Shown in pieces: positions 1-27,866 of a DNA stretch of 64,000 nt. Below the pieces are notes generated by a model, which saw only the letters and a program-made list of their open reading frames with translations, had not been told where the DNA came from and did no database searches. Source of the stretch: Chloroflexota bacterium (GTDB taxonomy: Bacteria > Chloroflexota > Anaerolineae > Promineifilales > Promineifilaceae); the NCBI GenBank assembly GCA_035444285.1, contig DAOMOK010000025.1:7506-71505 (forward strand). The letters run 5' to 3'. A program made the position numbers and the translations under genes. Position 1 is the first letter of the stretch. Each line of letters starts with the position of its first letter.

Positions 1-258
1 TTGGGGTCAATGCGTATTGAACTGGACGGCTGTGAACTCGTCATGCGTCCAGCTTCGCGAGCTCTATTTCTCTACTTATTACTTCATCGGCACAAATACC
101 TGCGGCGGGAAGCTCTAGCCGCTCTCTTTTGGGGCGAGAGTGACGATGCGCATGCAGGCGTTTTTGTAGCAAAAGGACAAAACTTTACGTTTGAGGACGA
201 GGCAACCAAAAGTAAGGCAGACATTCTAAGTTCAGGTGAGCTTTTCTGGCACGGTTAG
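1..258 (+). pseudogene. Remnant resembling the winged-helix N-terminus of a BTAD/SARP-type regulator
   Basis: LVMRPASRALFLYLLLHRHKYLRREALAALFWGESDDAHA parallels the N-termini of the regulators at 10552, 20056 and 27867 (e.g. KVRALLAYLAVESDRPHRRESLTALFWPE). The frame stops after 85 aa with no BTAD or ATPase part. Touches the window edge. Confidence 0.4.
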
Positions 259-394
259 CCACCTGCCTGCTGTCTACTTCTCACAACGTATTGTGGATGT
301 TGAGAACCATGGTGTATAGAGTTTTCGAGTAACACCAAACCGAGTCAATGATTTGGACTCCGGAGGATGAGATGTAAAGATGATCAGTCGGTCG

Positions 395-1399
395 TTACTG
401 CTTCTCGTCAACCATTTCAGCAACTAAAACAAAAAAATGGGGCAGGAGATGGCGCAGTGCTTCACGTCTAGCTGTCAGTTGCATAGTGGTTGCCAAACCT
501 AAGTCTGCCAACAACTGCTGGTATAGACTGGAAAAACATTTTCTTTCTACGGCCGTGGCGTCATTCTGGAAGACGAGGTTTAACAAAAAATAGGTGTGCA
601 GTATCCACTGCATGGCTTCCCGATGATGCCCCTCATCAATCATCTCTTGCGCAGCCGCGGTGTAATAAGGCAGCAGGTGGGGACGTAGTTTATACCCAAC
701 ATAGGGAATGGGGGTGCGATAGATAGCCACAGCCTGTGGGAATGCCTGGGCGACAAAGGGAAGATACCCCTCTACCTGAGAGCGTGTCATGCGGACACAG
801 CCCAATATTTGCAAAGCGTTTGTGTGAAGTTCCAGCCGTTTCTGCGCCTGCAAAATGCTCTTCATACCAATAAGCGAACGCCGGTGGGTGGGGATGTTCA
901 GACTGGCTACGGCCAGCAAGCCGCCCAGATACATCAGCGTGAAGGATAAGGCCAGGACGGTGAAATCTGGTTGGTCGAGCGTGGTTTGCACCAGTTCCTT
1001 TTCCCACTGGCAGCGCGCCTCTACCCAGCGGCGACGGCCGTACTCCCCTACTACTGCCCGCTGCACCTTCCCCAATAAGCCGGTGGGATCGGCCAGGATG
1101 TGGCCGTGCGCCAGGTGGGGCGCCAGGCGGGGGTTGGACAATACGGCCGTGACCTCATATTCCCCTGGTGTACCAAAGGCCACATCCAGCATCAGCCCCT
1201 CATACCAGACAGCCCGGTTGCCGCGTCCACCGTCCGCTAACACGATTTTTATATCCACGTCCCGATGTGCCGGAAAGTCCGCCTCAGCCGACAAACCATT
1301 CAAGCTGCCCTGTAAATGCGCGCCTATAAAACCGGGTGTCTGTGCCTCCTCGGCCGACACCCACTGCCGCGCCAATTGTGTGATTTTGTGTACCCTCAT
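395..1399 (-). CDS. Nucleotidyltransferase-domain protein (aminoglycoside/KNTase-like architecture)
   Basis: 334-aa ORF with AGGAG upstream of the ATG. GSLNG...HRDVDIKIV fits the G-S...D-x-D minimal NTase signature and is followed by a helical C-terminal half. Last gene of a co-directional cluster. Confidence 0.55.
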   Translation of the reverse strand: MRVHKITQLARQWVSAEEAQTPGFIGAHLQGSLNGLSAEADFPAHRDVDIKIVLADGGRGNRAVWYEGLMLDVAFGTPGEYEVTAVLSNPRLAPHLAHGHILADPTGLLGKVQRAVVGEYGRRRWVEARCQWEKELVQTTLDQPDFTVLALSFTLMYLGGLLAVASLNIPTHRRSLIGMKSILQAQKRLELHTNALQILGCVRMTRSQVEGYLPFVAQAFPQAVAIYRTPIPYVGYKLRPHLLPYYTAAAQEMIDEGHHREAMQWILHTYFLLNLVFQNDATAVERKCFSSLYQQLLADLGLATTMQLTARREALRHLLPHFFVLVAEMVDEKQ

Positions 1400-1403
1400 C
1401 AGC

Positions 1404-2126
1404 CTACTCCTGGTGCTGCTCTTCTTCTTCCTGTTCCACCGCTCTGGCAGAAATCAATTGCAGTTCTGCTTGTGTTAGAGCCTCCGAAAGCCAGAAGCGT
1501 TCCGCCTCATCTTCACCGGCGCGGTACAGCCAATGAGCGCTGACCGGCATGACACGGGCCGGATTAAACACCAGAATTTCATCCGAATCCCAATCCGCCC
1601 CTGACCGGTCGCCAATCGCCTCGTAGCCATGCCCCTTCACTTCCCCATGCAGCCGCGAGAGCCGTAGCCAGGCGTCGTGATAACGGGCCACTTTGCCCTT
1701 GCGTCCCCGCCCAATCGTCTGCACTCGTTGGCGGTGCGCGCGCATAAGAAGGTAGCTGCACAGGTGGATGAGTTCCTTCTGGGTTAATCGTTTGTTGGCG
1801 AGGATAGCCTGATGAAAATGGGGGCCAAGGTCGAGCAACTCCTGGCCGAATTCACGCCGCAGATGGCCAATCACTTTCCGGTCGTAGCTATCGTCCACCC
1901 ACAAGATGCGTGTACCCGGCCGTAGCTGGCAAACAATCACAAAATCTGGCGTCCACAAAGCGGCCGATTGCAGTTGTTGTGCCACATAAACGCCGCGCCC
2001 CAGCATATTGCCGTGCCCCTCATGCCCCAGGGCGAATCCCTGGCTCATAATGGCATAGGCATGACCGGTCCACGTCCCGTGATAGTAAATTTTGTCATCG
2101 TCCGTTTGCATGAGGTTTACACCCAT
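1404..2126 (-). CDS. PARP-like ADP-ribosyltransferase-fold protein
   Basis: YYHGTWTGHAYAIMSQGF...GNMLGRGVYVAQQLQSA fits the H-G-[ST]...G-F...G-x-G-[IV]-Y-[FV]-A core of PARP-type ARTs. C-terminal SDEILVFNPARV fits the catalytic-Glu strand (NEYIVY-like). The ATG overlaps the GNAT stop (TGATG). Confidence 0.55.
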   Translation of the reverse strand: MGVNLMQTDDDKIYYHGTWTGHAYAIMSQGFALGHEGHGNMLGRGVYVAQQLQSAALWTPDFVIVCQLRPGTRILWVDDSYDRKVIGHLRREFGQELLDLGPHFHQAILANKRLTQKELIHLCSYLLMRAHRQRVQTIGRGRKGKVARYHDAWLRLSRLHGEVKGHGYEAIGDRSGADWDSDEILVFNPARVMPVSAHWLYRAGEDEAERFWLSEALTQAELQLISARAVEQEEEEQHQE

Positions 2127-2608
2127 CAACGCATCTCAGCCAGTTCGACCTTCATCAAGTAGTATGGTTCCGATTCCCCGACGACGGCAAATCCCAGGCG
2201 TTCATAGAGCTGTCGGGCCGGATTCATTTTGAACACCTGGAGCGTAACCGGTTGCCGCCTGGCCCGGGCTTGCGCCAGGAGGTGGTGCAGCACGGCCGTG
2301 CCCACTCCCCGGTTTTGGTAGGTCGGCAAGATATAGATGCCTTTCAGGTATAACACATCATCCTCCTCTACCAGCGCCAGTTCGCCCACATCTTGGTCGC
2401 CTACAACGATAATCTGGCTGATACTCGGATTAAAAGAGACGGCAAAACGTTGTCGCTGCGCACCTTCATCCCAACCCCAGATCGCCTCCACGTACTTCTG
2501 CATGGTTGCCCGGCGCAATTGGTAGACAAAGTCATAATCCGATGCCGAAGCTGGACGCAATCTCACCTCTTGTGTATCCATAAGCTGCGTTACTTTTTCA
2601 ATAGACAT
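2126..2608 (-). CDS. GNAT family N-acetyltransferase
   Basis: 160 aa. Acetyl-CoA motif A is YQNRGVGTAVLHHLL, followed by NPARQLYERLGF. Confidence 0.85.
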   Translation of the reverse strand: MSIEKVTQLMDTQEVRLRPASASDYDFVYQLRRATMQKYVEAIWGWDEGAQRQRFAVSFNPSISQIIVVGDQDVGELALVEEDDVLYLKGIYILPTYQNRGVGTAVLHHLLAQARARRQPVTLQVFKMNPARQLYERLGFAVVGESEPYYLMKVELAEMR

Positions 2609-2638
2609 CTTCTTCAGACACCCTCTTCCTCTGACTCA

Positions 2639-3418
2639 TTATTTTACCCGCGCCTGGAACAACATCGTCAGATACGGTTTCAACACCTGTCCGCCGTGCT
2701 GCTGGATCGCGGTGCGGACGCCGGTAAAGAGCCGCTCGCGTGTGTCTGCCGCCAAATCTCGGTGAGCGGAATAGGTTTGTAACAGCTTAACGTAGCGTTC
2801 GGCCGTGTATGTCTCAGACCAGGCGTACTGCCGCACACTCACTGCACCAAAGCTGCCAGAAGCGCGGAAGTTTTCGGTGATGGCGCCGGTTAACCAATCG
2901 GCCGTAACGGTATTGTCCGGGTTTCGCAATTCCAGTTCGTGATATACAGCCTCAATGGCCCGCGACCACTCTGTTTGTGGGTCGGGGGTAACATTCCAGT
3001 AGAAAGCGGCCGATCCTGACTCTTTCAGGGCGGCGGCTGTTTTGGCATAACCTATCTCCGGCGGGATCCAGTGCATGGCCTCGGCGGAAATAACCAGGTC
3101 AAAGGCATTTGCTGCCAGCGGCCACTCTTCAAAGGCCACATTCACTACCTGGACGCGCGGGAAGGGGGCCAGATTGCACGCCGCCAGCGCCGCCAATTGT
3201 GGGCCGAGTTCAACGGCCGTAATGTGATAACCGCGTGTGGCGTAAGGCAGGGTGGCGTTGCCCGGCCCGCAGCCAATTTCCAGGATACGGCCGTCCGGCG
3301 GAATACCCGCCAGCGCCAGCACATCGTCAACCAACTGCGCCGGATAGCCGGGCCGGGCCTCGTTGAAGAGAGCGGCCGTTTCTTCAAATGTCGTGCGCCT
3401 GTTTCGGTCTATAGACAT
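2639..3418 (-). CDS. Class I SAM-dependent methyltransferase
   Basis: Motif I is ILEIGCGPGNATLPYA. Start moved to the internal ATG at 3418 (MSIDRNRR...), which is preceded by GGAAG. The longer track ORF has no RBS. Confidence 0.85.
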   Translation of the reverse strand: MSIDRNRRTTFEETAALFNEARPGYPAQLVDDVLALAGIPPDGRILEIGCGPGNATLPYATRGYHITAVELGPQLAALAACNLAPFPRVQVVNVAFEEWPLAANAFDLVISAEAMHWIPPEIGYAKTAAALKESGSAAFYWNVTPDPQTEWSRAIEAVYHELELRNPDNTVTADWLTGAITENFRASGSFGAVSVRQYAWSETYTAERYVKLLQTYSAHRDLAADTRERLFTGVRTAIQQHGGQVLKPYLTMLFQARVK

Positions 3419-3440
3419 CTTCACTTCCTTTTTTATTGTC

Positions 3441-3956
3441 CTATTTTGCAGCCACCTGTAAGCCAGCCCTCCATGAAAGAGCGTCGTCAAATGCGGCCTG
3501 GAAGACCTCATCCCATTCATGGTATTGCTGAGGGCGTGTCGTTACCGGTATGAACATTCGCCTTGATGTCTCATGTCTTGCAGCAAACGGCAGAATTCGA
3601 TTCACGGTACCAGCGTACAGCAACTGGCTGGCAAGTCGCGGATAGATGAAACCCGGTGCAAACGCCGGGTTCTCTGAGTGATCACACTCGACGGCGCCGA
3701 GCAGAACCGGTGAATCGATCGTGACACATGCTTCTTCGAGCAGCTCGCGTTGCAGGCAATCGAGCAGGCTCTCACCGGGCAGCACGTGACCGCCCGGAAT
3801 GGAGGCGCCCCGTCCGGCCACGTCAACCAGAATAAGCTGATCACCGGAAAAACAGAAGCAATGTACGGCCGTTACCGGCTCTGAGTACTGCCCCGGTTGC
3901 CGCACCCACCTGAGGCGAACAGGGCCGGAGGGCCAATGTACCAGGGCGCTGATCAT
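3441..3956 (-). CDS. Nudix hydrolase
   Basis: Nudix box [24 protein letters not shown] (G-x5-E-x7-REUxEE-x-GU pattern). ATGA overlap with the upstream gene. Confidence 0.85.
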
Positions 3957-4696
3957 TTGGTCTGACTGACATAGCGTTCGGCCGTGGCCACTTCCAACAC
4001 CAATTCACCCTGCTCATCGCGCCGCCAGATGGCGATGCCCAGCCACACCGCCCAGACGGGGATAAGCAGGAGAAACGGCGTTTCAATGATGGCCAGTGGT
4101 GTGACGCGGAATGCCTGCTCAAACCAGACACTGAGCGCCAGGACTCCCAAAACCATCGTCATGATGCCCAGGGCACGCCGCTCGTGCCGCAACACCGTGC
4201 CGATGCCCAGCCACCACAGGCCGCCAAAGAAAAATGCCAGCGGGCCGACACCATAAAAGACCATATTGAACCCGCTCTGGAAAACGACCAGCAGCACTTC
4301 TCGCTGCGCCTCCGAAGCGACCGCATATTCTCGCATCAACGGCGGCACCAGGCCGCCCATGAGGTTTACACCGATCATGCCCACGAGAATATGGGCGAAG
4401 CCGGCGATGGTGTACAGCGTGACCAGGGCAGGGTTACGCGGCTTGAGCCAATACCAAAGATAGAGGGCGGCCGGTGCCAGGAGCAGCGAGTAGCCAAACG
4501 TGTCCGAAACTGCCCAGGCCAGGTGGAGGTACCCGGCCGCAGGCTCTCCCAGGACGAGTACATCCGCCATATTAGACACTGCATCAGAATTGGCCCCAAT
4601 CGCCCGTGCGACCAGGACCCAGGCTGACAGGGCCACTGGCGCGGCGAGGATAGCGGTGATCGCAGCGATACGTCTGAATAAAGTTTGGTTGTTCAT
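3953..4696 (-). CDS. Polytopic membrane protein, function unknown
   Basis: 247 aa with about 7 hydrophobic segments. ATGA overlaps on both sides indicate operon membership. Confidence 0.6.
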
Positions 4697-5970
4697 GGGT
4701 TTTCTCCTTGTGAGACTATCAACCTGACCGCGTATAAAAAACGGTCTTTCGTCACCACGTACATCACGCCATTGGCTACACCTGGGGCCTTCGTACCAGG
4801 CTGCTTCTCCAGGTCGTAAGTAGCCAATAGAGCGCCGTCGCCCTTATCCAGGACGAACAGCCGGCCACTCGCACTCGCCAGATACAGATGCTGCCCGTCA
4901 ATCACGGGCGACCCCAACGGGACCCTTAACTCCGGGTCGTATTCCCACAAGGGCAACCCGTTATAGGCGTCAAGGGCCGCTACGACGCTGCTTGTGGCAT
5001 AGAGTGTGCCGGCATCTACCAGCGGAGTGGACACAATGCCCCCTGGCATACGAATTGACCACAAAAGACTACCATCCGTAGCATTCAGAGCCGATAGCCT
5101 GCGGTTCAGGCTGCCGACGTAGACGATCCCATTGCTTGCTCGTGGGGAACCGAAGACCTGACCATCCACCTGGTATTCCCACCGCAGCACGCCGTCCGCA
5201 ATGTTGATTGCGTGCAGGATGTGGTCACTTCCGGCAATGAACACAGCGCCATGGTCAACGGCCGGTGAGGAGGGAAGGGAGCCAGAACTGTCCATATCGC
5301 TCACTGGCTCGTCAAATTGGAAGCGCCACTGCAACGTCCCGTCTGTGGCGTCCAACGCATACAGGTATCCGTCCTGGCTATTCACAAAAACCAGCGTCTC
5401 ATAGACGGCAGGCTGTGAACGGACGTGCCCGCCGGTGGTGTAAGCCCAGAGCAAGGTCCCATCGAGGGCATCAACGGCGTATACATGGTGGTCTTCGCTG
5501 CCAAAGTATACTACTCCATCCGCGACTGTGGGTGTTGAAGGGGTATGCCCGTTGTGGTCGTAGCTCCAAAGGAGCGATCCGTCCCCGGCATCGAGCGCGT
5601 GCAGGCTTCCCCTCTTTCCTCCCGGAAGATCAGATGCACCGACGTAGACGACTCCATTAACGGCCGTTGCCGACGTCAACGGGGAAACCCAGTAAGGGGG
5701 TTCGCTCGCCGAACCCGGTTTGAAGGCCCAGAGCCGTTCACCGGCGGCTGTTTCCACTGTCGGCGTGGGGGCTTCTGTTGGCTCTGGTAGCAACGCGGTC
5801 GGCGGCAGATGAGCCTGGGCCGGTTCTTCCAATTCAGTCATCGGTGTGGGTTCCGGCTCTCCTGTTTTTTCAGGGATTGCCGTACCAGCCTGTGTGCAGC
5901 CAGGCGTCAAAAGCACTATCCCCAGGAGGACCATCATCGTCTGTCTGGCAAATTTGAATTGAGTATCCAT
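4693..5970 (-). CDS. PQQ-like (BamB-type) beta-propeller repeat lipoprotein
   Basis: Repeated G.VY.G..DG.L.ALDA.DG.L.W units (e.g. [45 protein letters not shown]). Signal peptide plus lipobox LLTPGC after the ATG at 5970. Confidence 0.8.
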
Positions 5971-6042
5971 GAAGTGCGTCTCCTTCGGCGAACGCTCACT
6001 CTTGATGTGCATAACCTTGTCCTATGGAACGGGACTGTTTGC

Positions 6043-6267
6043 TCAAACAAGCCCGGCTGCAAGAGCAGCGCCAATGAGCGCGCCTAAAGCGATGAACCCC
6101 AGGTTTGCCAGCGATTTCAGGCAACCGCCCGGCGGCACATCTCCTCTGGCTGGATCAAACTCCATGACTCCTGGGCGTACCATACGCCCACCCTTCATCC
6201 CAAATATCGGGATAGAGATTACCCAGGCGATTAAACCGCCTACAACTGCGCCTATAACGACTTCCAT
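6043..6267 (-). CDS. Small glycine-rich two-TM membrane protein
   Basis: Internal ATG at 6267 (MEVVIGAVVGGLIAWV...) is preceded by GAGGAG. The upstream part of the track ORF looks non-coding. Confidence 0.45.
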   Translation of the reverse strand: MEVVIGAVVGGLIAWVISIPIFGMKGGRMVRPGVMEFDPARGDVPPGGCLKSLANLGFIALGALIGAALAAGLV

Positions 6268-6301
6268 ATCTATACTCCTCGTAAATGGGACACCGTATAT
6301 G

Positions 6302-6775
6302 TCACACATGAATCCAACGATTGGCAAACTCTCCGGTGGTGCGGAACTCACTTCCGGGGACGGTGATCTGCCACATAATCCGGTAAGGGTCGCGGAAGGC
6401 AAGAGCCTCAGCGCTGTCCTCCATAATTGTTGCATCGGTGGGTAGGTGGGCGCGCACGCGGGCAATCTCATCTTCAATCATATGCAACCCGATGGCGAAG
6501 ACCTGGCCTGACGGCCTTTCGCCCTGAAACAAAGCCAGGATGAAATCTCCTTTGCGCAGGGCAACCATGCCTGGTGTGATGCCGGCCGCTTCGGCATCAT
6601 CCCAGCTTTTGTCAAAGGGCTTGTCCTGAGCGGCGTCGAAGGACAGCGTATACCACAGGCCATCGTCTAACAGCACCTCACGGCCGATCAACTGCATCTC
6701 GAACAACGGCCGGTAATACGCCTCGGCCGTGCGCAAGTCAGGGACGACCAGGGCGATGTGTCGTATGCTGGTCAT
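6302..6775 (-). CDS. VOC (glyoxalase/bleomycin-resistance/dioxygenase) family protein
   Basis: MTSIRHIALVVPDLRTAEAYYRPLFEM is a typical VOC N-terminus. AGGAGG lies upstream of the ATG at 6775. Confidence 0.8.
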   Translation of the reverse strand: MTSIRHIALVVPDLRTAEAYYRPLFEMQLIGREVLLDDGLWYTLSFDAAQDKPFDKSWDDAEAAGITPGMVALRKGDFILALFQGERPSGQVFAIGLHMIEDEIARVRAHLPTDATIMEDSAEALAFRDPYRIMWQITVPGSEFRTTGEFANRWIHV

Positions 6776-6795
6776 AGTTCTATACCTCCTGCGCT

Positions 6796-7419
6796 TCACC
6801 CGCGCCACAGCAGCCCAACTCCGAGCAGCAGCAGCGTCGGGATGTAGACCACCGGCCAGCCATTTACGTTAAAATAGAGATAGAAGGCCAGCAGGCTCCA
6901 GGCCAGAGCGGCCCAGCCGAGCCACGACGGTAGCAGTTTCGCATGCAGCCCCAACCAGCTAAAGAGCAGCAGAGCAGTGAGCAGGAAGCTGATGTAGATG
7001 CGTTGAAGGCCGTAATTTATCCAGTGGCGGAGGGGCTCGTAGAACTCTGGCGCGGCGCCTGCGCGGGCTACCCTGACCGCCCAAACGGTAACACTGGCGT
7101 GAAAACTGACCTCGATAACGGCCAAGACCGTGCCGAACACAAACAATACCAGGGCAACAACGGCCGTGCCCTTATCCCCGGCTTTAAGCAGGGCAAACCC
7201 GGCCAGTTGGGCCATTAAGTACGGCACGGCGAAGCGTGCGATGGTGCGCAGCCCCGAAGCGTCTCTGGTCGAAAAACTCACGCCGCGATAGCCGGCCGCC
7301 ATGCCCTCCAGCCGCCCCTGCGCGGCAATGGATCCGACACCATAAAGCAGGATGAGCAGGCCCAACAGCAGCAAGATGCCGGCGATACGCGCTGTGCTGA
7401 AGTAATTCGTGGCGATCAT
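6796..7419 (-). CDS. Membrane protein, paralog family with C-terminal LLPSWLGW motif
   Basis: Start at MIATNYF (7419) overlaps the upstream stop as ATGA. Shares KLLPSWLGWAALAWS-type C-terminal segments with 7992-8563 and 8610-9242. Confidence 0.6.
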   Translation of the reverse strand: MIATNYFSTARIAGILLLLGLLILLYGVGSIAAQGRLEGMAAGYRGVSFSTRDASGLRTIARFAVPYLMAQLAGFALLKAGDKGTAVVALVLFVFGTVLAVIEVSFHASVTVWAVRVARAGAAPEFYEPLRHWINYGLQRIYISFLLTALLLFSWLGLHAKLLPSWLGWAALAWSLLAFYLYFNVNGWPVVYIPTLLLLGVGLLWRG

Positions 7420-7850
7420 TGCGCCAATCCTTTGCGGGCCAAGAACATCCCGATCAGAGCGACGACCGCCAGGACAAGCAATCCGGCGCCAAATCCGCCG
7501 ACGTAGAGCATGCCCACGGCGACCAGGGCAGCAATCATGACCCACAAGGCGTACCAGGCCCAGCGAGAGCCGTTCCAAAACCCCTGCAAAGCAACGAGCA
7601 GCGCCAGCGAGCCAAACGCCATGTACCATATGGCTACTTGTTGGGCATTCTTCCCCATCTGGTCGGCAATTTCCGGATATAACTGACTGAATTCCAGCGC
7701 ACCCAAATCCCCTCTTTCGGCTTCGGGGCCGAGGAAGAACCAGGCAATGCCGTTGAACAACAGCATGGCACTGACGACCAGCAGGATACCCCAGCCCACC
7801 TTCACCGCTCTTGACTGGTTTTTTACCTCATGTGTAGTAATCGTAGTCAT
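7416..7850 (-). CDS. Four-TM membrane protein, function unknown
   Basis: 144 aa, hydrophobic throughout, translationally coupled to the downstream gene. Confidence 0.6.
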   Translation of the reverse strand: MTTITTHEVKNQSRAVKVGWGILLVVSAMLLFNGIAWFFLGPEAERGDLGALEFSQLYPEIADQMGKNAQQVAIWYMAFGSLALLVALQGFWNGSRWAWYALWVMIAALVAVGMLYVGGFGAGLLVLAVVALIGMFLARKGLAQ

Positions 7851-7991: not shown

Positions 7992-8563
7992 TTACCCAGC
8001 CTTCTTCAATAGCAAAGGAATGCCAATCAGGAGCGGCATGAGGTGATGGGTAATGGGGTAATAGATGTCGCCTGGCGTGATGATAAAAAAAACGACCAGC
8101 AAGCCCAGGTTAAATGCGATGGTCGTCCAACCAATCCAGGATGGCAGCATCTTCGCCTGGAGCAATGCGCCCCCGATAGCCGCCTGGCCCAGAAAGGCAA
8201 GTATTACGTAGACGACGATGAGCGGAGAGGAAGGTATGCGCATCGCTTCGGCCGCCGCCAGCAAGACGGCTCCGAAGAAATAGGCACTGGCACCCAACCG
8301 CGCCAGTACACGGCCGTTGGTATCTTGAAGTGTCGCCTCAAGCAGCACAAATCCGAGCGCGGTAAGGATGACTGCCGCCAGGATGGATCCACGTTCCCAC
8401 ACGAAGAGCGCCGGGCTGTGGGGCGCAGGCTGTGGGGCGCACCTCCCTGGACTCCATTCCGGCTGTTAAACAGGTACAGGCCGAGCGCCAGAGGGAGAAT
8501 AGCGGCAACTAGCAAGGCGCCTGTTACTCTTTCTTCCGTCCAAAACGCCTGGTTTGTGTTCAT
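7992..8563 (-). pseudogene. Membrane-protein paralog disrupted by a 14-bp tandem duplication
   Basis: The N-terminal frame (MNTNQAFWTEERVTGALLV...) and the C-terminal frame (WERGSILAAVILTALG...) are in different phases. They are separated by GGCTGTGGGGCGCA x2 at 8414-8441. Removing one copy joins them in frame. Confidence 0.65.
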
Positions 8564-8609
8564 GATCCTTTCCTCTCTCCTTTCGTGTCTTATCTCGCTC
8601 GTGATGGTT

Positions 8610-9242
8610 CTATGGCCACAGCAGGGCCACACCGATGGCGGCCGGCATGATGAAGGGGATGGCCGGTGCCCCGACCCCAACCAGCCACCCGGCGAAACAC
8701 AGAGTGCTCCAGCCAATCGCCGCCCAGCCCAGCGAGGGCGGCAGCAGGCCGGTACGCAGGATGCCCCATCCGATTAAGATCATCGCCACAAAACTCCCTG
8801 CATAGCCCAGGCGAAAAGCGCCATCGGTCGCATCGCGTAACGGCGGATAAATCTCCGGGATGCTTTCGGTGCGCCCCGCCTCCTCCGCTGCCCAGGTGGT
8901 CAGGCCCACGTGGAAGGCTCCATGCAGAATGCCGGTAAGACCGGTTACAAGTGCGAGCGTAAAGGCCAACAGCGCCTGTTGTTCCTCCCCGGCCCGGGCC
9001 AGTAGGCGGGCCAATAGTGCAAACCCCAACAACGGGAAAATCCAGGTGACCGAGTAGATCTCGTTCAACAGCCGGAATGTATCGGCATAGGGGGCCATCG
9101 CTGCCAGCGCGCCTCCCACCGCCGCAAAGCCGGATGCCGCCCCGTTGACAATCATGATCACAGCCGCCAGCAAGCCGATCAGCAGGCCGCTAACCAGCAG
9201 GCTGCCCGTTACTCTTTCTTCCGTCCAAAATGCCTGGTTCAT
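8610..9242 (-). CDS. Membrane protein, intact paralog of 7992-8563
   Basis: Start at MNQAFWTEERVTGSLLV (9242) mirrors the N-terminus of the pseudogene. C-terminal LLPPSLGWAAIGWS motif. Confidence 0.65.
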   Translation of the reverse strand: MNQAFWTEERVTGSLLVSGLLIGLLAAVIMIVNGAASGFAAVGGALAAMAPYADTFRLLNEIYSVTWIFPLLGFALLARLLARAGEEQQALLAFTLALVTGLTGILHGAFHVGLTTWAAEEAGRTESIPEIYPPLRDATDGAFRLGYAGSFVAMILIGWGILRTGLLPPSLGWAAIGWSTLCFAGWLVGVGAPAIPFIMPAAIGVALLWP

Positions 9243-9285
9243 ATTTAGACTCCATTCTCCATTGGCCCAGACTGAGCCTTTACGA

Positions 9286-10200
9286 CTATTGGGATTCGTA
9301 ACCATTTTCCAGCGGCGGCAGTGATTGCAGGTACAAAAAGATGGCTCTCAGCTCGTCGTCCGTTTGCCTTTGCATGTGGGCCAGCGCATTGGTCATCGGC
9401 TCGCACAGAGCGTGTCCGTCTGGCGTGATGCCGGTGCGGATGGTCTGGATGAACTCTTCCTCCGACCAGCCGGCCAGTTGTCCGCCTGGGGTCAAATTAC
9501 GGGCTGGCGAATGGTCGAGGCCAGCTGCGGTAGGCTGACCATTCAGTTCCTCGCCGTGACAACTACGGCAATGACCAATATCTACCAGGTATTGGCCATA
9601 TGCGGCCGTGACGCCCGGCGCAACGGCCGTTCGATTGGAAACCGTGTGGTCAATCAGCGCGGCGGGCACAACAACTGGCTCTATTATTACCATCGCATAC
9701 CCTAACGGCCCCAGGCGCTGCTCCGGCACCTCGTTGTCCACCGGCTCCAGCGATTGAAGATAAGCCAGCATCGCGCCCAGGTCTTCGTCAGGCAGCGTAT
9801 GGTAGGTATTCGATGGCATCAACAAGAGGGATTTACCGTCTGTGCCTACGCCATGGCGGATAGCCCGCACCCAATCTTCTTCGCTGAAGTGGGTGCCGGC
9901 GCCCCCGGCTCCGGCCGTCAGGTTGGAGCCGTAAAAGGTTCCTATAGCGGGGTCATCTACCAGTAACATGCCGCCCAGGTTATCGCCATGACACTCCGTG
10001 CAGCCGGCAATGGCCCACACCAGAGGCTCGCCGCGGTCAATGGCCGCCTCATCGTCGGGAATGACTACGGCCGTAACCGGCACATCATAGCTCTGGTTAA
10101 TCTTTGAAGAGGCCGTAACATAACCAACAACAGCCGCTACTACAACCAGCCCCACCAGCCCGGCGAAGATGATGCCTATCCATTTCAATACTTTTTTCAT
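9286..10200 (-). CDS. Membrane-anchored dihaem c-type cytochrome
   Basis: N-terminal TM helix plus two CXXCH motifs (CTECH, CRSCH), each followed by a cytochrome c-like segment. Confidence 0.85.
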   Translation of the reverse strand: MKKVLKWIGIIFAGLVGLVVVAAVVGYVTASSKINQSYDVPVTAVVIPDDEAAIDRGEPLVWAIAGCTECHGDNLGGMLLVDDPAIGTFYGSNLTAGAGGAGTHFSEEDWVRAIRHGVGTDGKSLLLMPSNTYHTLPDEDLGAMLAYLQSLEPVDNEVPEQRLGPLGYAMVIIEPVVVPAALIDHTVSNRTAVAPGVTAAYGQYLVDIGHCRSCHGEELNGQPTAAGLDHSPARNLTPGGQLAGWSEEEFIQTIRTGITPDGHALCEPMTNALAHMQRQTDDELRAIFLYLQSLPPLENGYESQ

Positions 10201-10551: not shown

Positions 10552-13500
10552 ATGACTCGCCTTTCCCTTTCTCTCCTGGGAAGCTGGCAGGCAACGCTAA
10601 ATGGAGAACCCATCACCGCTTTTGAATCGGATAAGGTTCGGGCTTTGCTGGCCTATCTGGCCGTGGAATCCGACCGGCCGCATCGCCGGGAAAGCCTGAC
10701 TGCATTGTTCTGGCCGGAACGGCCGGAGCGCAACGCCCGCCAAAATTTGAGCCAGGCATTGTTTAACCTGCGCCAGGCGATTGCAGACCGGGAGGCCAGG
10801 CCACCTTTCCTGCTCGTCTTACAACAGACAATCCAGTTCAACGGCGCAGCCGATTGCTGGCTCGACGTGACAACATTCGAGGAGCTGATAGCTGCTGCCA
10901 GACAACACAGGCATGAGGAACCGGCGCTCTGTGGCCCATGCTTGAAACGGTTAGAACGCGCCATTGCCCATTATCGGGGGGATTTCCTGGCCGGCTTTTC
11001 CCTGCCAGACAGCATCCCCTTTGACGAGTGGGCTTTACTCAAACGCGAACAGTTGCAGCGATTGGTTTTAGAAGCTCTGTTTACACTGACGGAGGCCTAC
11101 GAAGTTTACGGGACTGTTGACCTTGCACTGTCCTATGCCCGGCGGCTGGTGGAACTGGACCCCTGGCATGAAGAAGGGCAGCAACGTCTGCTGCGCCTGC
11201 TGGCGCTCAATGGCCTGCGGAATGAGGCGCTGACTCAGTATGAAAAGTTTCGCCAACTGCTCGGGCAAGAATTTGGCATCGAACCGGCGGCCAGGGCACA
11301 AACGCTGGCCGAAGCCATCCGTTCCGGAGAACTGGAAAAGGAAGCGGCAAGTCTCAGAATTGACAAACCACGTCAGAACCTTCCAGGGCAGCTAACATCC
11401 TTTATTGGTCGTGAGCCCGAGTTGGAAAGGATTAAGGAAAAGTTTGCGGATCAGGATTGCCGTCTGCTGACGCTGGTTGGCCCAGGCGGGATCGGCAAAA
11501 CCAGGCTGGCCGTGCAGGTTGCAGCCAGTCTGCTGGATCAGTACCTCCACGGGGTTTGGTTTGTGGACCTGTCGGCCAATACGGAGCCAGAGCAAGTGCT
11601 GGCAAGTGTGGCCAATACCCTCGGCATAAACGAAGTCGCCAGCGAGCCGCGCCTGAAGACCCTCCAGCGAGCTTTACGCCAGAAACAAATCTTTCTCTTG
11701 CTCGACAACTTTGAACATGTCATTGAAGCGGCGACTGACGTGAGTGAACTGCTGGCTGCTGCGCCAGGTCTCACCCTGATGGTGACCAGCCGGGAGGTAT
11801 TGCGCCTGGAAGGAGAACACGTTTATCTGGTGCTGCCGCTGGGGCTGCCTGAGGAGCAACGGCCGTTCCCGATGGCCGCCCTTTCCCAATATGAATCTGT
11901 GCGCCTTTTCCTGGACCGGGTGGGCGCCGTTAATCCGGCTTTTGCCCTGACGGAAGAGAATGCAACGGCCGTGGCCGAGATCTGCCTCCGCCTGGAAGGG
12001 TTGCCCCTGGCCATCGAGTTGGCCGCCGGGCGATCCCGGCTGTTTACCCCAGAGCAGTTGTTGGCGCAGCTCAAAAACCGACTGCGGACGCTGGTTGGTG
12101 GGTCGCGTAACCTGTCCCACCGGCAGCAGACGATCTGGAACACTATCGAATGGAGTTACCAGTTACTAGATGAGGGTGAAAGACTCCTTTTTGCCCGGCT
12201 GGGTGCCTTTGCGGGCGGCTGGACGTTGGAGGCAGCCGAATCGGTATGCGCCTCAAGTTTGCCCATGGATGTCCTCAGTGGTCTGGAATCCCTGCTGGAC
12301 AAGAGCCTCATCCGCCAAAGCAAGGCTGGAGCCGGTGGGCCACGTTTCACCATGCTGGAAACCATCCGCGAGTTTGCCGTCGAAAAACTCGTAGAAAGTG
12401 AGGAGCAGCCTGCCATACACCGCCGACATACCGCCTATTTTCTGGAGTGGATTCACCGAACACCGACATATTGGGGCAAATTGACACATCACATACAAGC
12501 GCCAGAGGTGGAAAATGTGCGTGCAATTATGCGCCGGGGGCTGACTTCAGGGGAATTGGCGGCGCCAGTGGAGCTTGTTTGCTGGATGGTCCGCCTATGG
12601 GAAGGGCGCGGCTATGCAGTGGAGATGGGTAACTGGCTGGAACTGGTTTTGGCCGATGAGAGCAGTAGAGTTAGCCTGCCCCTAAGGTTGTATGCGCTTG
12701 CTTTGCGCATCGCGGGTAATTTACAAGGTCTCTCAACATTGGATTTACAGAAAGCATACCGATATTATGAACAGAGCCTGATGATTTCCCGAGAAGAACA
12801 AGACCATCGGATGGCAGCAGCCGCTCTTTCCAACCTGGCCAATCTTGATGCCAGGCTGGGCAACTATTTGCTGGCCCGAACCCGCAATGAAGAGGCATTG
12901 GCCTTTTTGGAGAAATCTGGTCCGCTGAGTAAGAGTAACGTGCAGCCTGTGCGAATAGTCCTGGGGAATCTGGCGGAACAGCTGGCTGAAGAGGGGGCTT
13001 TTGAAGTGGCCTGGGTGCATGCTGAAAAAGCTTTGCAACTTGCCGAAGAATTGGAACACGAGGGTGGAGTTGCGATTGTGTTGGCCACCATGGGAATCAT
13101 TGCTATACGTCAGGAAAAGTATGAGCCGGCCCGTTTGTATTTAGAGCAAGCCCTGGCTACCTGGGATGAGCAACAAAACACCTATAGACGGACAGAGATA
13201 TGGGGATTGCTGGGAACGCTGGCTTTGAGAGAGCATAACCTGGCGGATGCGGAACAACTGTTGCTGCAAGCGCTCTATTCCTGTGCCGAGCAACAGGTGC
13301 GCGACTTAGTCCCAACTATCCTTGACCGGCTGGCGGAGCTTAGATTCACTCAGGGATATGCCATAGAGGCAGTTTGCATTTGTGCGGCTGTGGACGCTTT
13401 CTACAAACAGCACGGGTTGGTGCGTCCACCCGAGGAAATGCCAAATTACGAGCAGATTCTTGCCTCCGCTCGTCAACAGCTTGGCGAAGCAGCTTTTGCC

Positions 13501-13581
13501 TCTGCTTGGCAAGAAGGCAAGTCGTGGGAATTGTTCGATCTGGCCGACAACATAGTGGGCAAGCAAAGCGGGCGGACATGA
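10552..13581 (+). CDS. BTAD/SARP winged-helix + NB-ARC-type ATPase + TPR transcriptional regulator (STAND class)
   Basis: wHTH KVRALLAYLAVESDRPHRRESLTALFWPE. BTAD EEGQQRLLRLLALNGLRNEALTQYEKFRQLLGQEFGIEP. Walker A LVGPGGIGKTRLAV and Walker B FLLLDNFEH. About 400-aa TPR-like tail. Confidence 0.9.
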   Translation: MTRLSLSLLGSWQATLNGEPITAFESDKVRALLAYLAVESDRPHRRESLTALFWPERPERNARQNLSQALFNLRQAIADREARPPFLLVLQQTIQFNGAADCWLDVTTFEELIAAARQHRHEEPALCGPCLKRLERAIAHYRGDFLAGFSLPDSIPFDEWALLKREQLQRLVLEALFTLTEAYEVYGTVDLALSYARRLVELDPWHEEGQQRLLRLLALNGLRNEALTQYEKFRQLLGQEFGIEPAARAQTLAEAIRSGELEKEAASLRIDKPRQNLPGQLTSFIGREPELERIKEKFADQDCRLLTLVGPGGIGKTRLAVQVAASLLDQYLHGVWFVDLSANTEPEQVLASVANTLGINEVASEPRLKTLQRALRQKQIFLLLDNFEHVIEAATDVSELLAAAPGLTLMVTSREVLRLEGEHVYLVLPLGLPEEQRPFPMAALSQYESVRLFLDRVGAVNPAFALTEENATAVAEICLRLEGLPLAIELAAGRSRLFTPEQLLAQLKNRLRTLVGGSRNLSHRQQTIWNTIEWSYQLLDEGERLLFARLGAFAGGWTLEAAESVCASSLPMDVLSGLESLLDKSLIRQSKAGAGGPRFTMLETIREFAVEKLVESEEQPAIHRRHTAYFLEWIHRTPTYWGKLTHHIQAPEVENVRAIMRRGLTSGELAAPVELVCWMVRLWEGRGYAVEMGNWLELVLADESSRVSLPLRLYALALRIAGNLQGLSTLDLQKAYRYYEQSLMISREEQDHRMAAAALSNLANLDARLGNYLLARTRNEEALAFLEKSGPLSKSNVQPVRIVLGNLAEQLAEEGAFEVAWVHAEKALQLAEELEHEGGVAIVLATMGIIAIRQEKYEPARLYLEQALATWDEQQNTYRRTEIWGLLGTLALREHNLADAEQLLLQALYSCAEQQVRDLVPTILDRLAELRFTQGYAIEAVCICAAVDAFYKQHGLVRPPEEMPNYEQILASARQQLGEAAFASAWQEGKSWELFDLADNIVGKQSGRT

Positions 13582-19154: not shown

Positions 19155-19436
19155 GTGATGAGACCAATACCCATCAACGAAAAACTGATGTGGGATACCG
19201 ATATTCCCCCCGATGCCCAAACTAACGAAGCCTTCCGCAAATGGTATATCAAGCGGGTGTTGACGCATGGAACAGCCGCCGACATACATGCCATAGGCTT
19301 AGAAACAATTCACCACTATCTGCCACATCTCCATCTTCCAGCCGATATAGATGAATTTTGGCAGTGGTATTTCAATGAACCACCCGTTCAGGAACGCTAT
19401 GGAAATCTTGACACCATTCCAGAATCAATTACTTAA
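19155..19436 (+). CDS. Small protein upstream of the AbiEii-like toxin (putative antitoxin partner)
   Basis: 93 aa. LMWDTDIP...FRKWYIKRVLTHGTAADI resembles, from memory, the short proteins that precede AbiEii-type NTases. Overlaps the next ORF by 38 nt. Confidence 0.5.
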   Translation: MMRPIPINEKLMWDTDIPPDAQTNEAFRKWYIKRVLTHGTAADIHAIGLETIHHYLPHLHLPADIDEFWQWYFNEPPVQERYGNLDTIPESIT

Positions 19437-20049
19437 AGCGATTGGCAGTTCTAATTTGGCGCAGAGTTTCTATCTAACAGGCGGAACCGCTCTGTCTGCT
19501 TTTTATCTACACCACCGCTTTTCAGAAGACCTCGACTTTTTTTCTGCTGATCCCAATGCTGTACGCCTGGTTCGCCCTGAACTGGAAAGAGTCGCATCTA
19601 ACCTCGGGGGACAACTTGAATTCAGCCGCACGTTCAATACCTTTGTTGAATGCTTTATTACTGCTCAGGATGGCGAAATAGTAAAGCTTGATTTTGCCCA
19701 AGATACGCCCTATCGATTGCAGCCGACGCAACTCAATTCTGTATTTGGCGTTCAGCTTGATAGTGCGTTAGATATTGCCGCAAATAAGCTGGCAGCCTTG
19801 TTTGACCGCGCTGCTGAAAAGGATTTCGTGGACATCTTTTTTGTCCACCGCGAATTGATTCAATTCGCTGAGTTGTTGCCGTTGGCGCGTGAAAAACAGA
19901 TGGGCATGGATGATTATTGGCTAGCAATTGCCTTACAGCGTGTCCGCCAGGTTGAAATACTACCGCGCATGATCAAACCGGTAGTCTTGGCTGATTTACG
20001 AACCTTCTTCTTACAGTTAGCACGGGCGTTAATGGCTAAGGGGGTATAA
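19399..20049 (+). CDS. Nucleotidyltransferase AbiEii/AbiGii toxin family protein
   Basis: FYLTGGTALSAFYLHHRFSEDLDFF is the family hallmark. Start set at MEILTPFQNQLL (19399). Confidence 0.85.
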   Translation: MEILTPFQNQLLKAIGSSNLAQSFYLTGGTALSAFYLHHRFSEDLDFFSADPNAVRLVRPELERVASNLGGQLEFSRTFNTFVECFITAQDGEIVKLDFAQDTPYRLQPTQLNSVFGVQLDSALDIAANKLAALFDRAAEKDFVDIFFVHRELIQFAELLPLAREKQMGMDDYWLAIALQRVRQVEILPRMIKPVVLADLRTFFLQLARALMAKGV

Positions 20050-20055: not shown

Positions 20056-23000
20056 ATGCTCAAATTCCACTTGCTGGGGCGGCCACAAATTAATCTGGGC
20101 GACCAGCCAGTTACCGACTTTGCCTCGGAAAAAGAGCTGCTGCTGCTCTGTTACCTGGCCTGCAATCCGGGTGAATACAGCCGACCACAGCTGGCCGGGC
20201 TACTGTGGGGGGAGATGCGCGAGGAGCGGGCGCGGGCTAACCTGAGTACGGCCGTATACAACCTGCACCAACTATTACCCACTGCCATCCAGGTCACCCG
20301 CAAAACGGCCGTTTTCAACCCCACCCAACCCGTCTGGCTGGATACGGCCGTTCTCCAGCAGGCTCTTAACGAAGATGCCGAGAACCTCGAAGCAGCGGTT
20401 GCCCGTTATCGCGGCCCATTTTTAGAAGGCATTTACCCACAGGATGCGCCGGAACTGGAAACATGGTTACAACAGGAGCGAGAACGATGGCGGTTGTTGG
20501 CCCTGACCGCCCTGGATCGCCTGGCTCAACAGCAAAGCCAGGGCGGGGAATGGGAAAAGGCCATCACCACTCTGCGCCGCCTGCTCGACCTGGAACCCTG
20601 GCGCGAAGAATCCCATCGGGTGCTCATGCGGCTGTTGGCCCGCACCGGCCAGTTCAACGCCGCTTTGGTGCAGTACGAAACCTGCCGCACTCTGCTTGAG
20701 CAAGAGTTAGGCGTGGAACCCATGGCGGAGACAACGGCCGTTTACCACCGCATCCAGACCGCCCGCCAGCGCCCCCAAACACACCATCTGCCCCCGCAAC
20801 CCACCCCTCTGGTCGGTCGCGCCGCCGAATTGGGCCGGCTTTTTGTCTGGTTCAATGACCCGTCGCGGCGGCTGATCACCCTGGCCGGGCCGGGTGGCAG
20901 CGGCAAAACGCGGCTGGCCCTGGCCGCCGCCGGCGATCAGGCTTACGCCTTTCTGGATGGCGTCCACTTTGTTCCCCTGGTCGAGGTAACCAACCACGCC
21001 GGACTGGTACAGGCCATCGCCACCGCGCTGGGGCTGACCCTGACCGCCGGTGAGGAGCAGCCCCAGCTGCTCGACTATCTGCGCCACAAAGAGATGCTGC
21101 TGTTATTGGACAATGTGGAGCAGGCATTGGCCCCCACCGCCGATCTGGTCTTGACCCTGCTGGAAAATGCGTCCCGGCTGCGCCTGATCGTCACCTCGCG
21201 GGAATATCTGCAACTGCGTTGGGAGACGCGCCTGTCTTTAGGCGGACTGCCTGTTCCCCCCGATGCAGCGGCCGATATGGCTGCCTTTGACGCCGTGCGC
21301 CTGTTTGTGCAGGTGGGGCAGCGGGTGTGTCCCGATTTCAATCTGACGGGGCAGGAAACGGCCGTTGCCGACCTCTGCCGCCTGGTGGAGGGCATACCGC
21401 TGGCGCTGGAACTGGCCGCTTCTCTGCTGAACGCCGAAGCCCCCCCCCAACTGCTGGCGCAAATCCGGCAAAGTTTCGACCGGCTGGCGACCACGATGCA
21501 CGACGTGCCCGCCCGCCACCGCAGCCTGCGCGCTGTATTTGACTATTCCTGGGCGCTGCTGGCGGCCGCGCAGCAGGCGGCGCTGCCCCGCCTGGCGCTG
21601 TTTCATGGCGGCTTTACGCCTCAGGCGGCGCTGGCTGTGGCCGCCGCGTCACCGGTGCTGTTGGCGGGTCTGGCCGCTAAATCGCTCATCCACACCGAGG
21701 CTAACGGCCGTTACAGCCTGCACGAACTCATCCGCCACTATGCCCTGGAGCGGCTGGCCGATGTGCCGCCAGCCACTGCCGCCCACGCCGCCTATTTTGC
21801 GGCACAGCTACAGCAGGCAGCGCAAACCTTGCATGGCTCAGCGCAAACGGCCGTTGCCCACCAACTGCTGGCCGATTTAGCCAATATCGAGGTGGGCTGG
21901 CAAACGGGAATTGCTGCCGCAGATGAAGATTTGCTGCGGGCAATGGCCCCCGGATTGGCCCGTTTTTATGTGGTAGCGGGTTTGTTTCAGGCAGGCGAGG
22001 CCGCTTTTGGTGCAGCCCTGGTCAGTCTCGCGACTCCGGCTTTACAGGTGTACCACGCCATGTTTTTGTTGGAACGGCAGGAATATGAGGCAGCGGCAAC
22101 GGCCGTTGCCGCTGCCTCTGCCGGCCTGTCAGATCCCGTTCTGGTGGCCCAGGCGTATCTCATTACCGCCGCCACTTCTTTGCGTCAGGGAGATGTGGCC
22201 GCAGCCCACGGCGCGCTCACACAGGCGCTGGCCACGGCTGAAAAGGCCCAAATTCCCTGGCTAGAGGCGCAGGCGTGGCGTTTGTTTGGGCAGGTGAGTG
22301 AGCGCACAGGCGCGTATGCCCAGGCAGAAGAGGCGCTGCGCCAGGCGTTGGCCATCTACGAGACCAGTGGTGATCCCCTGGAACTGGCGCGTACTTACCA
22401 ATCATTGGCCGCTGTGCTCTTTCGGCGCGGTGACAATGTCGGCTCAAAGCAGCTCTTGGAAAAAGCGTTGGCGATACAGCGGCAAGTAGACCCCACCGGC
22501 TTGAGCAGCGCCCGCGTGTTGGTGGCGCTGGGGACTGTCGCCAGCAACCTGAACCAGGAAGAGCAGGCGGTCGCTTTTTTCCAGCAGTCTCTGGCTGTTT
22601 TTCGGCAGATGGGCGACCGGGCCAATGCGGCGCTGGCGGCTAATATGTTGGGACGCGGAGCGGCCTGGGATTACGACTTCAGCCGGGCGCGAAATTATTA
22701 CACGCAGGCGTTGGCCTGGTATGGGGAGATCGGGCAGCGCAAGGGGGTAGCGGACACGCAGCGTTATCTGGCTGACTTGGCTCTTACTCTGGGGCAATAT
22801 GAGGAGGCGCAGGCGCGATTAACGGCCGTTTTAGACACCTATCACGCCATTCAAGATAAACGCAGTGTCGGCACAACTCTGACCCGACTCTCCCTCCTCC
22901 ACCATCTTCAGGGCGACGAGCAAACGGCCGCCCAGCAGGCTGAGGCGGCGCTGGCTATCGCCGCCGAAATTGGCAATCCGCTGCTGCGGGCATATGGTCT

Positions 23001-27673: not shown

Positions 27674-27814
27674 GATTTGGTTTCCTTTTGTAGGGCGATT
27701 TGCCAAATCGCCCTACGATAATTTTCGACAGTGTAACGAACGGCCGTCCCGCCATCGTCCCAGAAAGCGTCCCGGTTCGGCCGTATCGGACTAACTGGTT
27801 TTGGCCTACAATAG

Positions 27815-27848
27815 AGACCTGACAGGTTTTTTGAAACCTGTCAGGTCT
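27815..27848 (+). promoter_or_regulatory. Perfect 15-bp-arm palindrome between a TACAAT box and the RBS of the regulator gene
   Basis: AGACCTGACAGGTTT tttg AAACCTGTCAGGTCT. TACAAT lies at 27807-27812, GGAGGA at 27849-27854 and the ATG at 27867. Confidence 0.6.
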
Positions 27849-27866
27849 GGAGGAATCGGAACAACC

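Follow-up and report, generated by a model that had tools for sequence, protein, structure and literature searches.

Results

Gene content of the locus

We describe here a putative stand-alone ADP-ribosyltransferase (ART) of 240 amino acids (aa), encoded on a 64,000-nucleotide (nt) stretch of DNA from a Chloroflexota bacterium of the Promineifilaceae (assembly GCA_035444285.1, contig DAOMOK010000025.1, positions 7,506 to 71,505 of the forward strand), which as a whole is called the window and whose numbering is used throughout. The ART gene belongs to a string of seven co-directional genes on the minus strand at the low end of the window, packed with overlaps of 1-4 nt or short gaps. These genes and an eighth beyond them are listed by coordinate, each with the evidence for its identity; some of this evidence comes from models calculated with AlphaFold2 (AF2).

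395-1399, minus strand: nucleotidyltransferase-like (NTase-like) protein, 334 aa (Foldseek fold match of the AF2 model)
1404-2126, minus strand: PARP-like ART, 240 aa, stand-alone (sub-threshold PF00644 match, Foldseek, conservation)
2126-2608, minus strand: generic GNAT acetyltransferase, 160 aa (Pfam Acetyltransf_7/1/10, E = 6e-13)
2639-3418, minus strand: class I S-adenosylmethionine-dependent methyltransferase, about 259 aa (Pfam Methyltransf_25/11/23; Methyltransf_25, E = 6e-14)
3441-3956, minus strand: Nudix hydrolase, 171 aa, with the Nudix box GHVLPGE-x7-RELLEEACV (Pfam NUDIX, E = 7e-10)
3953-4696, minus strand: DUF4386-like multi-pass membrane protein, 247 aa (Pfam DUF4386, E = 1.9e-5, below the cut-off)
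4693-6012, minus strand: PQQ/BamB-like beta-propeller, 439 aa (Pfam PQQ_2, E = 2e-59)
6302-6808: VOC/Glyoxalase protein (Pfam, marginal)

A preliminary description of this DNA, made from the letters and their translations, had reported six tightly packed minus-strand genes at 395-4696 with three overlaps of 1-4 nt. Reading each junction bears this out, and Pfam confirms the GNAT, methyltransferase and Nudix identities, so the layout given there was correct. The ART is not, however, directly flanked by the Nudix gene as had been stated: its immediate neighbours are the GNAT and NTase-like genes, and the Nudix gene lies two genes upstream. The beta-propeller gene, which falls beyond the six, is the first gene of the string. 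The GNAT stop and the ART start overlap by 1 nt (TGATG at 2126), ATGA overlaps join the Nudix gene to the DUF4386 gene (3953-3956) and the latter to the PQQ gene (4693-4696), and the ART and NTase-like genes are separated by a gap of 4 nt. The methyltransferase reading frame extends to 3520, but its start is most likely the ATG at 3418, because this is preceded by a Shine-Dalgarno sequence (AAGGAAG) and because a start at 3520 would overlap the Nudix gene by 80 nt.

Scans of positions 1-7000 for consensus promoters (5 found, 3.6 expected) and for terminators (8 found, 6.4 expected) both stayed at chance level, and we therefore draw no operon boundaries or subdivision of the string from them. 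The Nudix protein has no equivalog-level NCBIfam match, and the NCBIfam matches of the GNAT to RimI or AAC are far below threshold. Pfam gave no match to the Macro, PARG or ARH families in the eight genes scanned (395-6808). PADLOC returned nothing for the ART, GNAT, NTase-like and membrane proteins and only generic matches for the methyltransferase and the Nudix hydrolase. The VOC gene mentioned earlier at 6302 does match Pfam, at a score just over the cut-off (21.9 bits vs 20.6).

Fold and family of the 240-aa protein

Assignment of the 240-aa protein to the ART fold, and within it to the H-Y-E clade typified by PARPs, is well supported by profile and model comparisons that agree with each other at modest scores, as the preliminary description had proposed from the motifs. 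The Pfam family PF00644 (PARP) matches with E = 1.8e-5 and 24.7 bits, against a gathering score of 26.7, and the alignment joins residues 11-60 to profile positions 48-100 of 199, the half that contains the His and Tyr elements. The same family is matched individually by 38 of 77 diverse members of the protein's family at E < 0.01; no other ART family recurs, and a single member weakly matches PF18760 (ART-PolyVal). When a profile built from the 77 members was compared with the PDB, chains of PARP10, PARP3, PARP16 and PARP1 were retrieved with E of about 2e-4 to 1e-3.

The AF2 model of the protein (pLDDT 81.7, pTM 0.78) points the same way. Foldseek against the PDB returned almost exclusively ART domains, namely those of PARP1/2/3/4/10, tankyrase, SAIP, ExoA, DT and RES/NatT, and the top PARP1/2/3/4/10 domains were found with probabilities of 0.95-1.0 and TM-scores of 0.3-0.37. 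Against BFVD, the matches were phage PARP-catalytic and ART-PolyVal proteins, with E down to 3e-7. The chain begins 13 residues ahead of beta1 and ends in an acidic tail (EQEEEEQHQE).

Placement among the ART clades thus gave a PARP-type protein, and neither profiles nor structure comparison put it on a non-ART fold. For Arr there was no Pfam or NCBIfam match at E <= 0.1, and NCBIfam as a whole returned nothing. Tpt1/KptA enzymes, which carry an R-H-R-R tetrad, were not matched through PF01885, and the family profile reached Tpt1 chains only with E = 0.026 over 29 residues. DarT and RES were likewise unmatched in Pfam, as were the WGR and PARP_reg domains, and a single-sequence phmmer search against the PDB yielded only noise. 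This does not establish it as a member of the PARP family proper.

Active site

The three motifs singled out earlier, YYHGT (with His16), GRGVYVA (Tyr47) and DEILVF (Glu183), are all present. They lie within predicted PARP-type NAD+-binding elements, which comprise His16-Gly-Thr on beta1, Gly45-x-Tyr47 on beta2, Trp58 a further 11 positions on, and Glu183 where the catalytic strand begins, within DSDEILVFNP. Trp58 is presumably equivalent to the second nicotinamide-stacking Tyr of PARP1. These residues and the insert discussed below are encoded as follows:

2079-2081, minus strand: codon of His16
1986-1988, minus strand: codon of Tyr47
1953-1955, minus strand: codon of Trp58
1578-1580, minus strand: codon of Glu183
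1632-1880, minus strand: helical insert of the ART, residues ~83-165, between beta4 and beta5 (AF2 secondary structure)

Conservation across the 77 members is high on the His-Tyr side, with His16 and Tyr47 each present in 76, Gly17 in 69, Thr18 in 74 and Gly45 in 71, and residue 58 is aromatic in 76. Because His, Tyr and the second aromatic are near-invariant, the NAD+ pocket looks conserved at the level of sequence. The catalytic acid looks either mobile or dispensable. Position 183 is Glu in 27 of the 30 members of the close subfamily and Gln in the other 3. The triad is therefore found in homologs only in part: His and Tyr hold throughout, and Glu or Gln holds in the close subfamily, but in the wider family Glu has given way to Gly in 62%.

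Helical insert

From Tyr47 to Glu183 the spacing is 136 aa, compared with about 92 aa in PARP1. An insertion of roughly 130 aa between these elements had been noted; the long spacing is real, but in the model the insertion itself would amount to about 83 aa, since only residues 83-165 form an all-helical module that is extra to the canonical ART core. This module holds the most conserved columns of the family, a near-invariant motif across the 77 members that reads L89-x2-E92-F93-G94 ... P109-x-N111-K112 ... E118-x3-L122. It is equally conserved in the subgroups with Glu and with Gly at the catalytic position.

In the model the module lies adjacent to the catalytic strand, at what we take to be the place of the PARP acceptor loop, and for this reason it probably forms the acceptor-recognition site, lined by the invariant Glu, Asn, Lys and Glu residues. 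The insert might also supply catalytic residues.

Size and spread of the family

Searching for homologs of the 240-aa protein brought up 59 clusters, none of them named, in metagenome genomes of Chloroflexota (Promineifilaceae, Ardenticatenaceae, Anaerolinea). When 1.8 billion representatives were searched with a profile at E <= 1e-3, the count rose to 312 relatives, again all unnamed, and the family extended to metagenome genomes of Planctomycetota, Verrucomicrobiota and Bdellovibrionota. As judged from these sequence searches, the family is without name or annotation in the protein collections covered. No match to the ART was found by tblastn in plasmid and phage collections. Fusions are rare: P0157 (385 aa) carries a C-terminal NIF/FCP1-like phosphatase domain and P0075 (347 aa) a C-terminal DUF2914. 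In the locus designated L008, an open reading frame with a DLDETL motif, judged by eye to be NIF/FCP1-like, lies about 3.5 kb from the ART.

Comparison with related loci

All eight window proteins were compared by tblastn with 28 loci. Homologs of both the GNAT and the NTase-like protein stand beside an ART in L025-L027 only, no Nudix homolog was found in any locus, and the only methyltransferase homolog is weak (L018, 28% identity, E = 3e-4). One NTase homolog without an ART beside it lies in L028, a locus that was fetched for that NTase. As a set, the cluster is therefore not conserved among these loci; the GNAT-ART-NTase part alone recurs, in L025-L027.

The nearest relative is L025, whose ART is 85% identical and whose upstream GNAT is 72% identical, at about 80% nucleotide identity. 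By blastn, it aligns with window positions 157-2569, covering the GNAT, ART and NTase-like genes and some downstream sequence, and with positions 3979-4043 at the end of the DUF4386 gene. This 3' end is homologous to L025:1-65 and forms the upstream flank of a swapped cassette. Between the two homologous flanks, blastn and the gene tables place a P450 gene in L025 where the window has its Nudix and methyltransferase genes (2570-3978), and the methyltransferase region has no DNA homology to L025 at that place. On this alignment the Nudix gene and the methyltransferase gene form a cassette that can be exchanged, which argues against a partnership of either with the ART. A functional unit of all six genes, in which the Nudix hydrolase or the methyltransferase would process the products of the ART, is not supported, given this exchange and the lack of a Nudix homolog in the 28 loci.

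The GNAT-ART-NTase trio is kept in L025, and the gap between ART and NTase is again 4 nt; at about 80% nucleotide identity, such retention can be plain synteny. Measured against L025, dN/dS values of 0.135 (ART) and 0.24 (GNAT and NTase-like gene alike) indicate purifying selection on all three genes. Further close homologs stand in other contexts: in L001 (ART 76% identical) the upstream gene differs and the downstream side runs off the contig, in L002 (70% identical) no NTase gene follows, and L020 (74% identical) has neither a GNAT nor an NTase gene. Because these contexts differ, the trio does not appear to be obligatory.

The surroundings of close homologs vary widely and include IS21 with Ada/HTH genes, aldolase/AFOR with APH, ImuA-ImuB-DnaE2, a metallophosphatase, an abhydrolase, a Zn ABC transporter and a 2257-aa SpvB/TcdB/RHS protein. 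For distant members the setting is a phage-like region, the vicinity of TPR giants, or a divergent arrangement with sbcCD in which a sigma-70 gene follows the ART. Across the ART loci examined no recurrent neighbour, such as an antitoxin, immunity or delivery gene, was seen, and the 240-aa protein has no N-terminal delivery domain.

Some of these contexts deserve separate mention. In L020 the ART homolog (8001-8675, 74% identical) lies 170 nt downstream of a SpvB/TcdB_toxin_midN/RHS-repeat protein at 1058-7831, an arrangement also found in L021-L023. The C-terminal tip of the RHS-repeat protein, of about 270 aa, is Gly/Ala-rich, and the ART homolog stands where an immunity gene or an orphan toxin would typically be found. 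We rejected such a role for the ART in general, since the arrangement comes from a single near-identical contig set with a 170-nt gap, and no Rhs remnant occurs elsewhere.

The distant member at L029:5277-5984 has phage-like surroundings made up of three DNA methylases, Amidoligase_2, a PTH2 peptidyl-tRNA hydrolase, a T4-type RNA ligase 1 and an HNH protein, a hint that conflict between phage and host over RNA or tRNA may involve some members of the family. In three loci of Verrucomicrobiota (L010:6473-8741, L031:4554-6891 and L009:2474-4949) the ART is divergent from sbcD-sbcC, followed by a sigma-70-family gene; the Pfam match to sigma-70 was obtained in L031, and the genes of L010 and L009 were guessed from position. 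This arrangement may be lineage synteny. A link to DNA repair was considered on the strength of Ada in three syntenic loci, ImuA/ImuB/DnaE2 in L016, SbcCD in L010 and L031, and SSB in L025. It was not adopted, because a rough estimate with about 10 neighbours per locus and about 20 loci is compatible with chance plus shared synteny.

The NTase-like protein

The AF2 model of the 334-aa protein (pLDDT 94.8) combines an N-terminal Pol-beta-like NTase domain with a long C-terminal helical domain. Foldseek relates it to HalB of the Hailong system, which is the best match, to the NTase-like protein 3c18, and to AAD(9) and AadA, with E from 4e-4 to 0.6, TM-scores of 0.25-0.45 and probabilities of about 1. 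Asp47, Asp49 and Asp104 are invariant in its family and form a D-x-D...D acidic triad. Sequence searches contribute nothing further: there was no Pfam, NCBIfam or PDB sequence match, the family profile found nothing in the PDB, and phmmer against the PDB gave noise. The nucleotidyltransferase call of the preliminary description is thus borne out by weak fold matches of the model and by the Asp triad, and has no sequence-profile support; we regard the name as supported at the fold level only. These fold matches do not separate a drug-modifying from a signalling role.

The family is common in Chloroflexota, with 186 matches that are all labelled "hypothetical". The 308-aa gene that follows the ART in L014 was considered as a further NTase homolog and rejected (BLASTP E = 1.8).

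Wider window

Beyond the string, the window holds a Tn3 transposase, AbiEii, STAND genes, a heavy-metal P-type ATPase, an ankyrin-repeat protein and a 1660-aa Ig/cadherin-like surface protein, and is a plastic accessory region; the Tn3 transposase supports the view of the region as mobile or accessory. The features with assigned positions are:

10552-13581, 20056-23439 and 27801-31094, plus strand: three BTAD-NB-ARC/AAA-TPR (SARP/STAND-type) proteins
19351-20049, plus strand: AbiEii-type nucleotidyltransferase toxin gene of type IV toxin-antitoxin or abortive infection systems (Pfam E = 2e-20)
36001-38904, minus strand: complete Tn3-family transposase, DUF4158 and DDE_Tnp_Tn3 (E = 2e-118)

The AbiEii gene sits directly upstream of a BTAD-NB-ARC-TPR gene. 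An open reading frame at 1-258 appears, by eye only, to be a further BTAD/SARP-type fragment, and the density of such regulators or sensors is unusual. The Cu/heavy-metal P-type ATPase (44961-47744) may or may not be cargo related to Tn3. A run of paralogous multi-pass membrane proteins with an LPSWLGW-like C-terminal motif (6796-7629, 7992-8402 and 8610-9305, minus strand) resembles the DUF4386-like gene at 3953-4696 and looks like a local paralog expansion.

Discussion

A probable PARP-like enzyme in a variable gene string

We think it fairly probable that the 240-aa protein belongs to an unnamed PARP-like family and is a cytoplasmic, stand-alone ART enzyme of the H-Y-E type, encoded in an evolutionarily ad hoc gene string. 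Such an enzyme would bind NAD+ and transfer a single ADP-ribose to a specific acceptor, which the conserved helical insert would probably specify. Since the examined loci have no conserved neighbouring antitoxin, immunity or delivery gene, a substrate-specific modifier, acting on a small molecule, a nucleic-acid end or one protein, would be more likely than a broad toxin. Synthesis of a polymer is unlikely, because there is no WGR or regulatory domain and no PARG among the neighbours. The surrounding genes are probably co-transcribed with the ART, and the tight string looks like a chance assembly in a variable region of the genome.

Several observations weigh against this interpretation. The Pfam PARP score remains under the gathering threshold and covers the His-Tyr half alone; Foldseek TM-scores are low (0.3-0.39) and the E-values modest, as is to be expected for the TM-scores if about a third of the chain is insert. 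The catalytic Glu position is Gly in 48 of the 77 members of the wider family. For these 48, either the acid is shifted, in keeping with an Asp or Glu that lies 2-3 residues upstream in 44 of them, or it is supplied by the insert, or many members are not transferases. The ART of the window itself has Leu at the near-invariant Pro109 (codon 1800-1802), where 75 of the 76 other members have Pro (AIPANK in the relative of 85% identity, AILANK in the window), and a functional change in the window's copy is possible on this evidence. Lastly, the spacing of 1 nt to the GNAT and 4 nt to the NTase-like gene, kept in one relative, leaves room for a functional unit of three genes.

A more far-reaching version of the same idea takes these irregularities as its substance and is in our view possible, though we hold it only tentatively. 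It would have an H-Y-[E/G] ART family with an 83-aa insert, spread over at least four phyla, in which E92, N111, K112 and E118 or an acid shifted 2-3 residues upstream complete the site. The enzyme would then modify a class of acceptor not so far assigned to bacterial PARP-like enzymes, such as the terminal phosphate of a nucleic acid or a housekeeping protein that is conserved; in the lineage of the window, the ART, the GNAT and the NTase-fold protein would act together as one unit.

Alternative explanations

The enzymes around the ART could instead be read as a small-molecule (antibiotic or xenobiotic) modification set, with the ART acting like Arr on a drug hydroxyl, the GNAT and NTase-like proteins serving as AAC and ANT, and the Nudix hydrolase and methyltransferase as optional members. 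A solitary ART without antitoxin fits a harmless small-molecule enzyme, and the Glu-to-Gly change would suit Arr-type chemistry, in which the third triad residue is not strictly needed; Arr, AAC and ANT nevertheless gave no family-level profile match, and the NCBIfam scores are far below the cut-offs. The NTase-like fold resembles AAD(9) and AadA in joining an NTase to a helical domain. Neighbours at other loci include APH, beta-lactamase, MerR/TipAS, an MFS protein with an abhydrolase, and P450, and the window adds the VOC gene at 6302, but genes for such enzymes are very common in soil Chloroflexota, so that proximity may be chance, and the set of neighbours is not constant between loci. Strong conservation of the polar insert points to a single target, probably a macromolecule, that is conserved across four phyla, and we consider a modification set unlikely.

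A conflict module of the toxin-antitoxin or anti-phage kind, with the ART as toxic effector and the GNAT or NTase-like protein as antidote or regulator, would account for distances compatible with translational coupling (the 1-nt overlap and 4-nt gap) and for a trio that kept its ART/NTase gap in L025-L027 while both flanks changed. That synteny is explicable by recent common ancestry at about 80% nucleotide identity in L025, however, and outside these three loci the ART loci examined contain neither GNAT nor NTase homologs and share no other recurrent neighbour. HalB, the best fold match of the NTase-like protein, belongs to the Hailong defence system; against this, the NTase family occurs without an ART. 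The window contributes AbiEii, Tn3 and STAND genes, one homolog follows a SpvB/TcdB/RHS giant and another has PTH2 and T4 RNA ligase around it in a phage-like setting, yet PADLOC is blank for the ART, GNAT and NTase, and the plasmid and phage collections contain no match to the ART. Such a module therefore seems improbable to us. We give still less weight to an ART-fold pseudo-enzyme, or a protein that binds NAD+ or ADP-ribose or hydrolyses NAD+, in place of a transferase. The replacement of Glu183 by Gly in 48 of the 77 members, the concentration of the highest conservation in the insert and not at the catalytic Glu, and the P109L change in the window copy would all suit this reading, but the NAD+ pocket keeps its His, its Tyr and its second aromatic almost without exception, and the subfamily of the window's ART keeps Glu or Gln. 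Many active mono-ART PARPs, moreover, lack the Glu (H-Y-I/L/T variants), and we consider the reading very improbable.

Significance

ADP-ribosyltransferases have unexpected substrates, among them DNA bases, RNA ends and antibiotics, and play roles in phage defence and toxin systems. With a predicted intact NAD+ pocket, a unique insert that is probably on the acceptor side and a frequent loss of Glu, the present family is a sensible place to look for new ART chemistry or a new target. Computational searches turn up new ART families regularly; what is unusual here is the combination of the insert with the Glu-to-Gly change in a family without annotation in the collections searched. The locus also illustrates that tight packing and thematic likeness, here of NAD-related and group-transfer enzymes, did not predict a conserved system, which became apparent from the comparison with one close relative.

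Comparison with known systems

The closest resemblance in both sequence and fold is to the PARP catalytic domain (PF00644; the mono-ARTs PARP10, PARP16 and PARP3, and the ART domain of PARP1). The 240-aa protein shares with it H-G-T on beta1, G-x-G-x-Y-x-A on beta2, a second aromatic 11 residues after the Tyr, and a Glu that starts the catalytic strand and is followed by a hydrophobic stretch, DEILVFNP here and NEYIVYD in PARP1. It differs in its sub-threshold Pfam score, the 83-aa helical module inside the ART core, the acidic C-terminal tail, the prevalence of Gly for Glu in the wider family, the lack of WGR and PARP_reg domains, and the lack of a PARG or macrodomain match nearby. A review puts the number of domains in bacterial PARPs at no more than three, namely WGR, PARP_reg and catalytic, and describes most of them as combining WGR with the catalytic domain (PMC8120803). 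We have not filed the 240-aa protein among them, because it consists of the catalytic part alone, with an internal insert.

Arr, the rifamycin ART of the H-Y-D type, is likewise a small stand-alone H-Y-x enzyme that occurs without antitoxin among genes of drug-modifying type. Arr is about 140 aa long with some 35 aa between Tyr and Asp, whereas the present protein has 240 aa, 136 aa from Tyr to Glu, a helical insert and no profile match to Arr. For the 334-aa protein, the likeness to HalB, ANT(9)/AadA and 3c18 consists of the fold-level match and the residues Asp47-x-Asp49 and Asp104. It has no profile match to any family; its helical domain is much longer than that of HalB, and no partner resembling HalA was seen.

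PARP-like and ART-PolyVal (PF18760) proteins of phages resemble the 240-aa protein in having a small H-Y-E core without PARP accessory domains. Together with large internal or ejection proteins of cyanopodophages (A4 gp28, 9k3a_B; Pf-WMP3 gp26), they gave its best Foldseek E-values (3e-7 in BFVD, 1.3e-4 in the PDB). Unlike them, the 240-aa protein is chromosomal and stand-alone and has no sequence match in the phage collection, and the phage proteins, as far as can be judged, lack the insert motif of the ART family. The best PDB fold match, 9k3a_B, is the pre-ejectosome protein gp28 of cyanopodophage A4, and the model comparison suggests that its domain, together with gp26 of the Phormidium phage Pf-WMP3 (BFVD A5HL40), may represent an unrecognised ART-like domain in ejected phage proteins.

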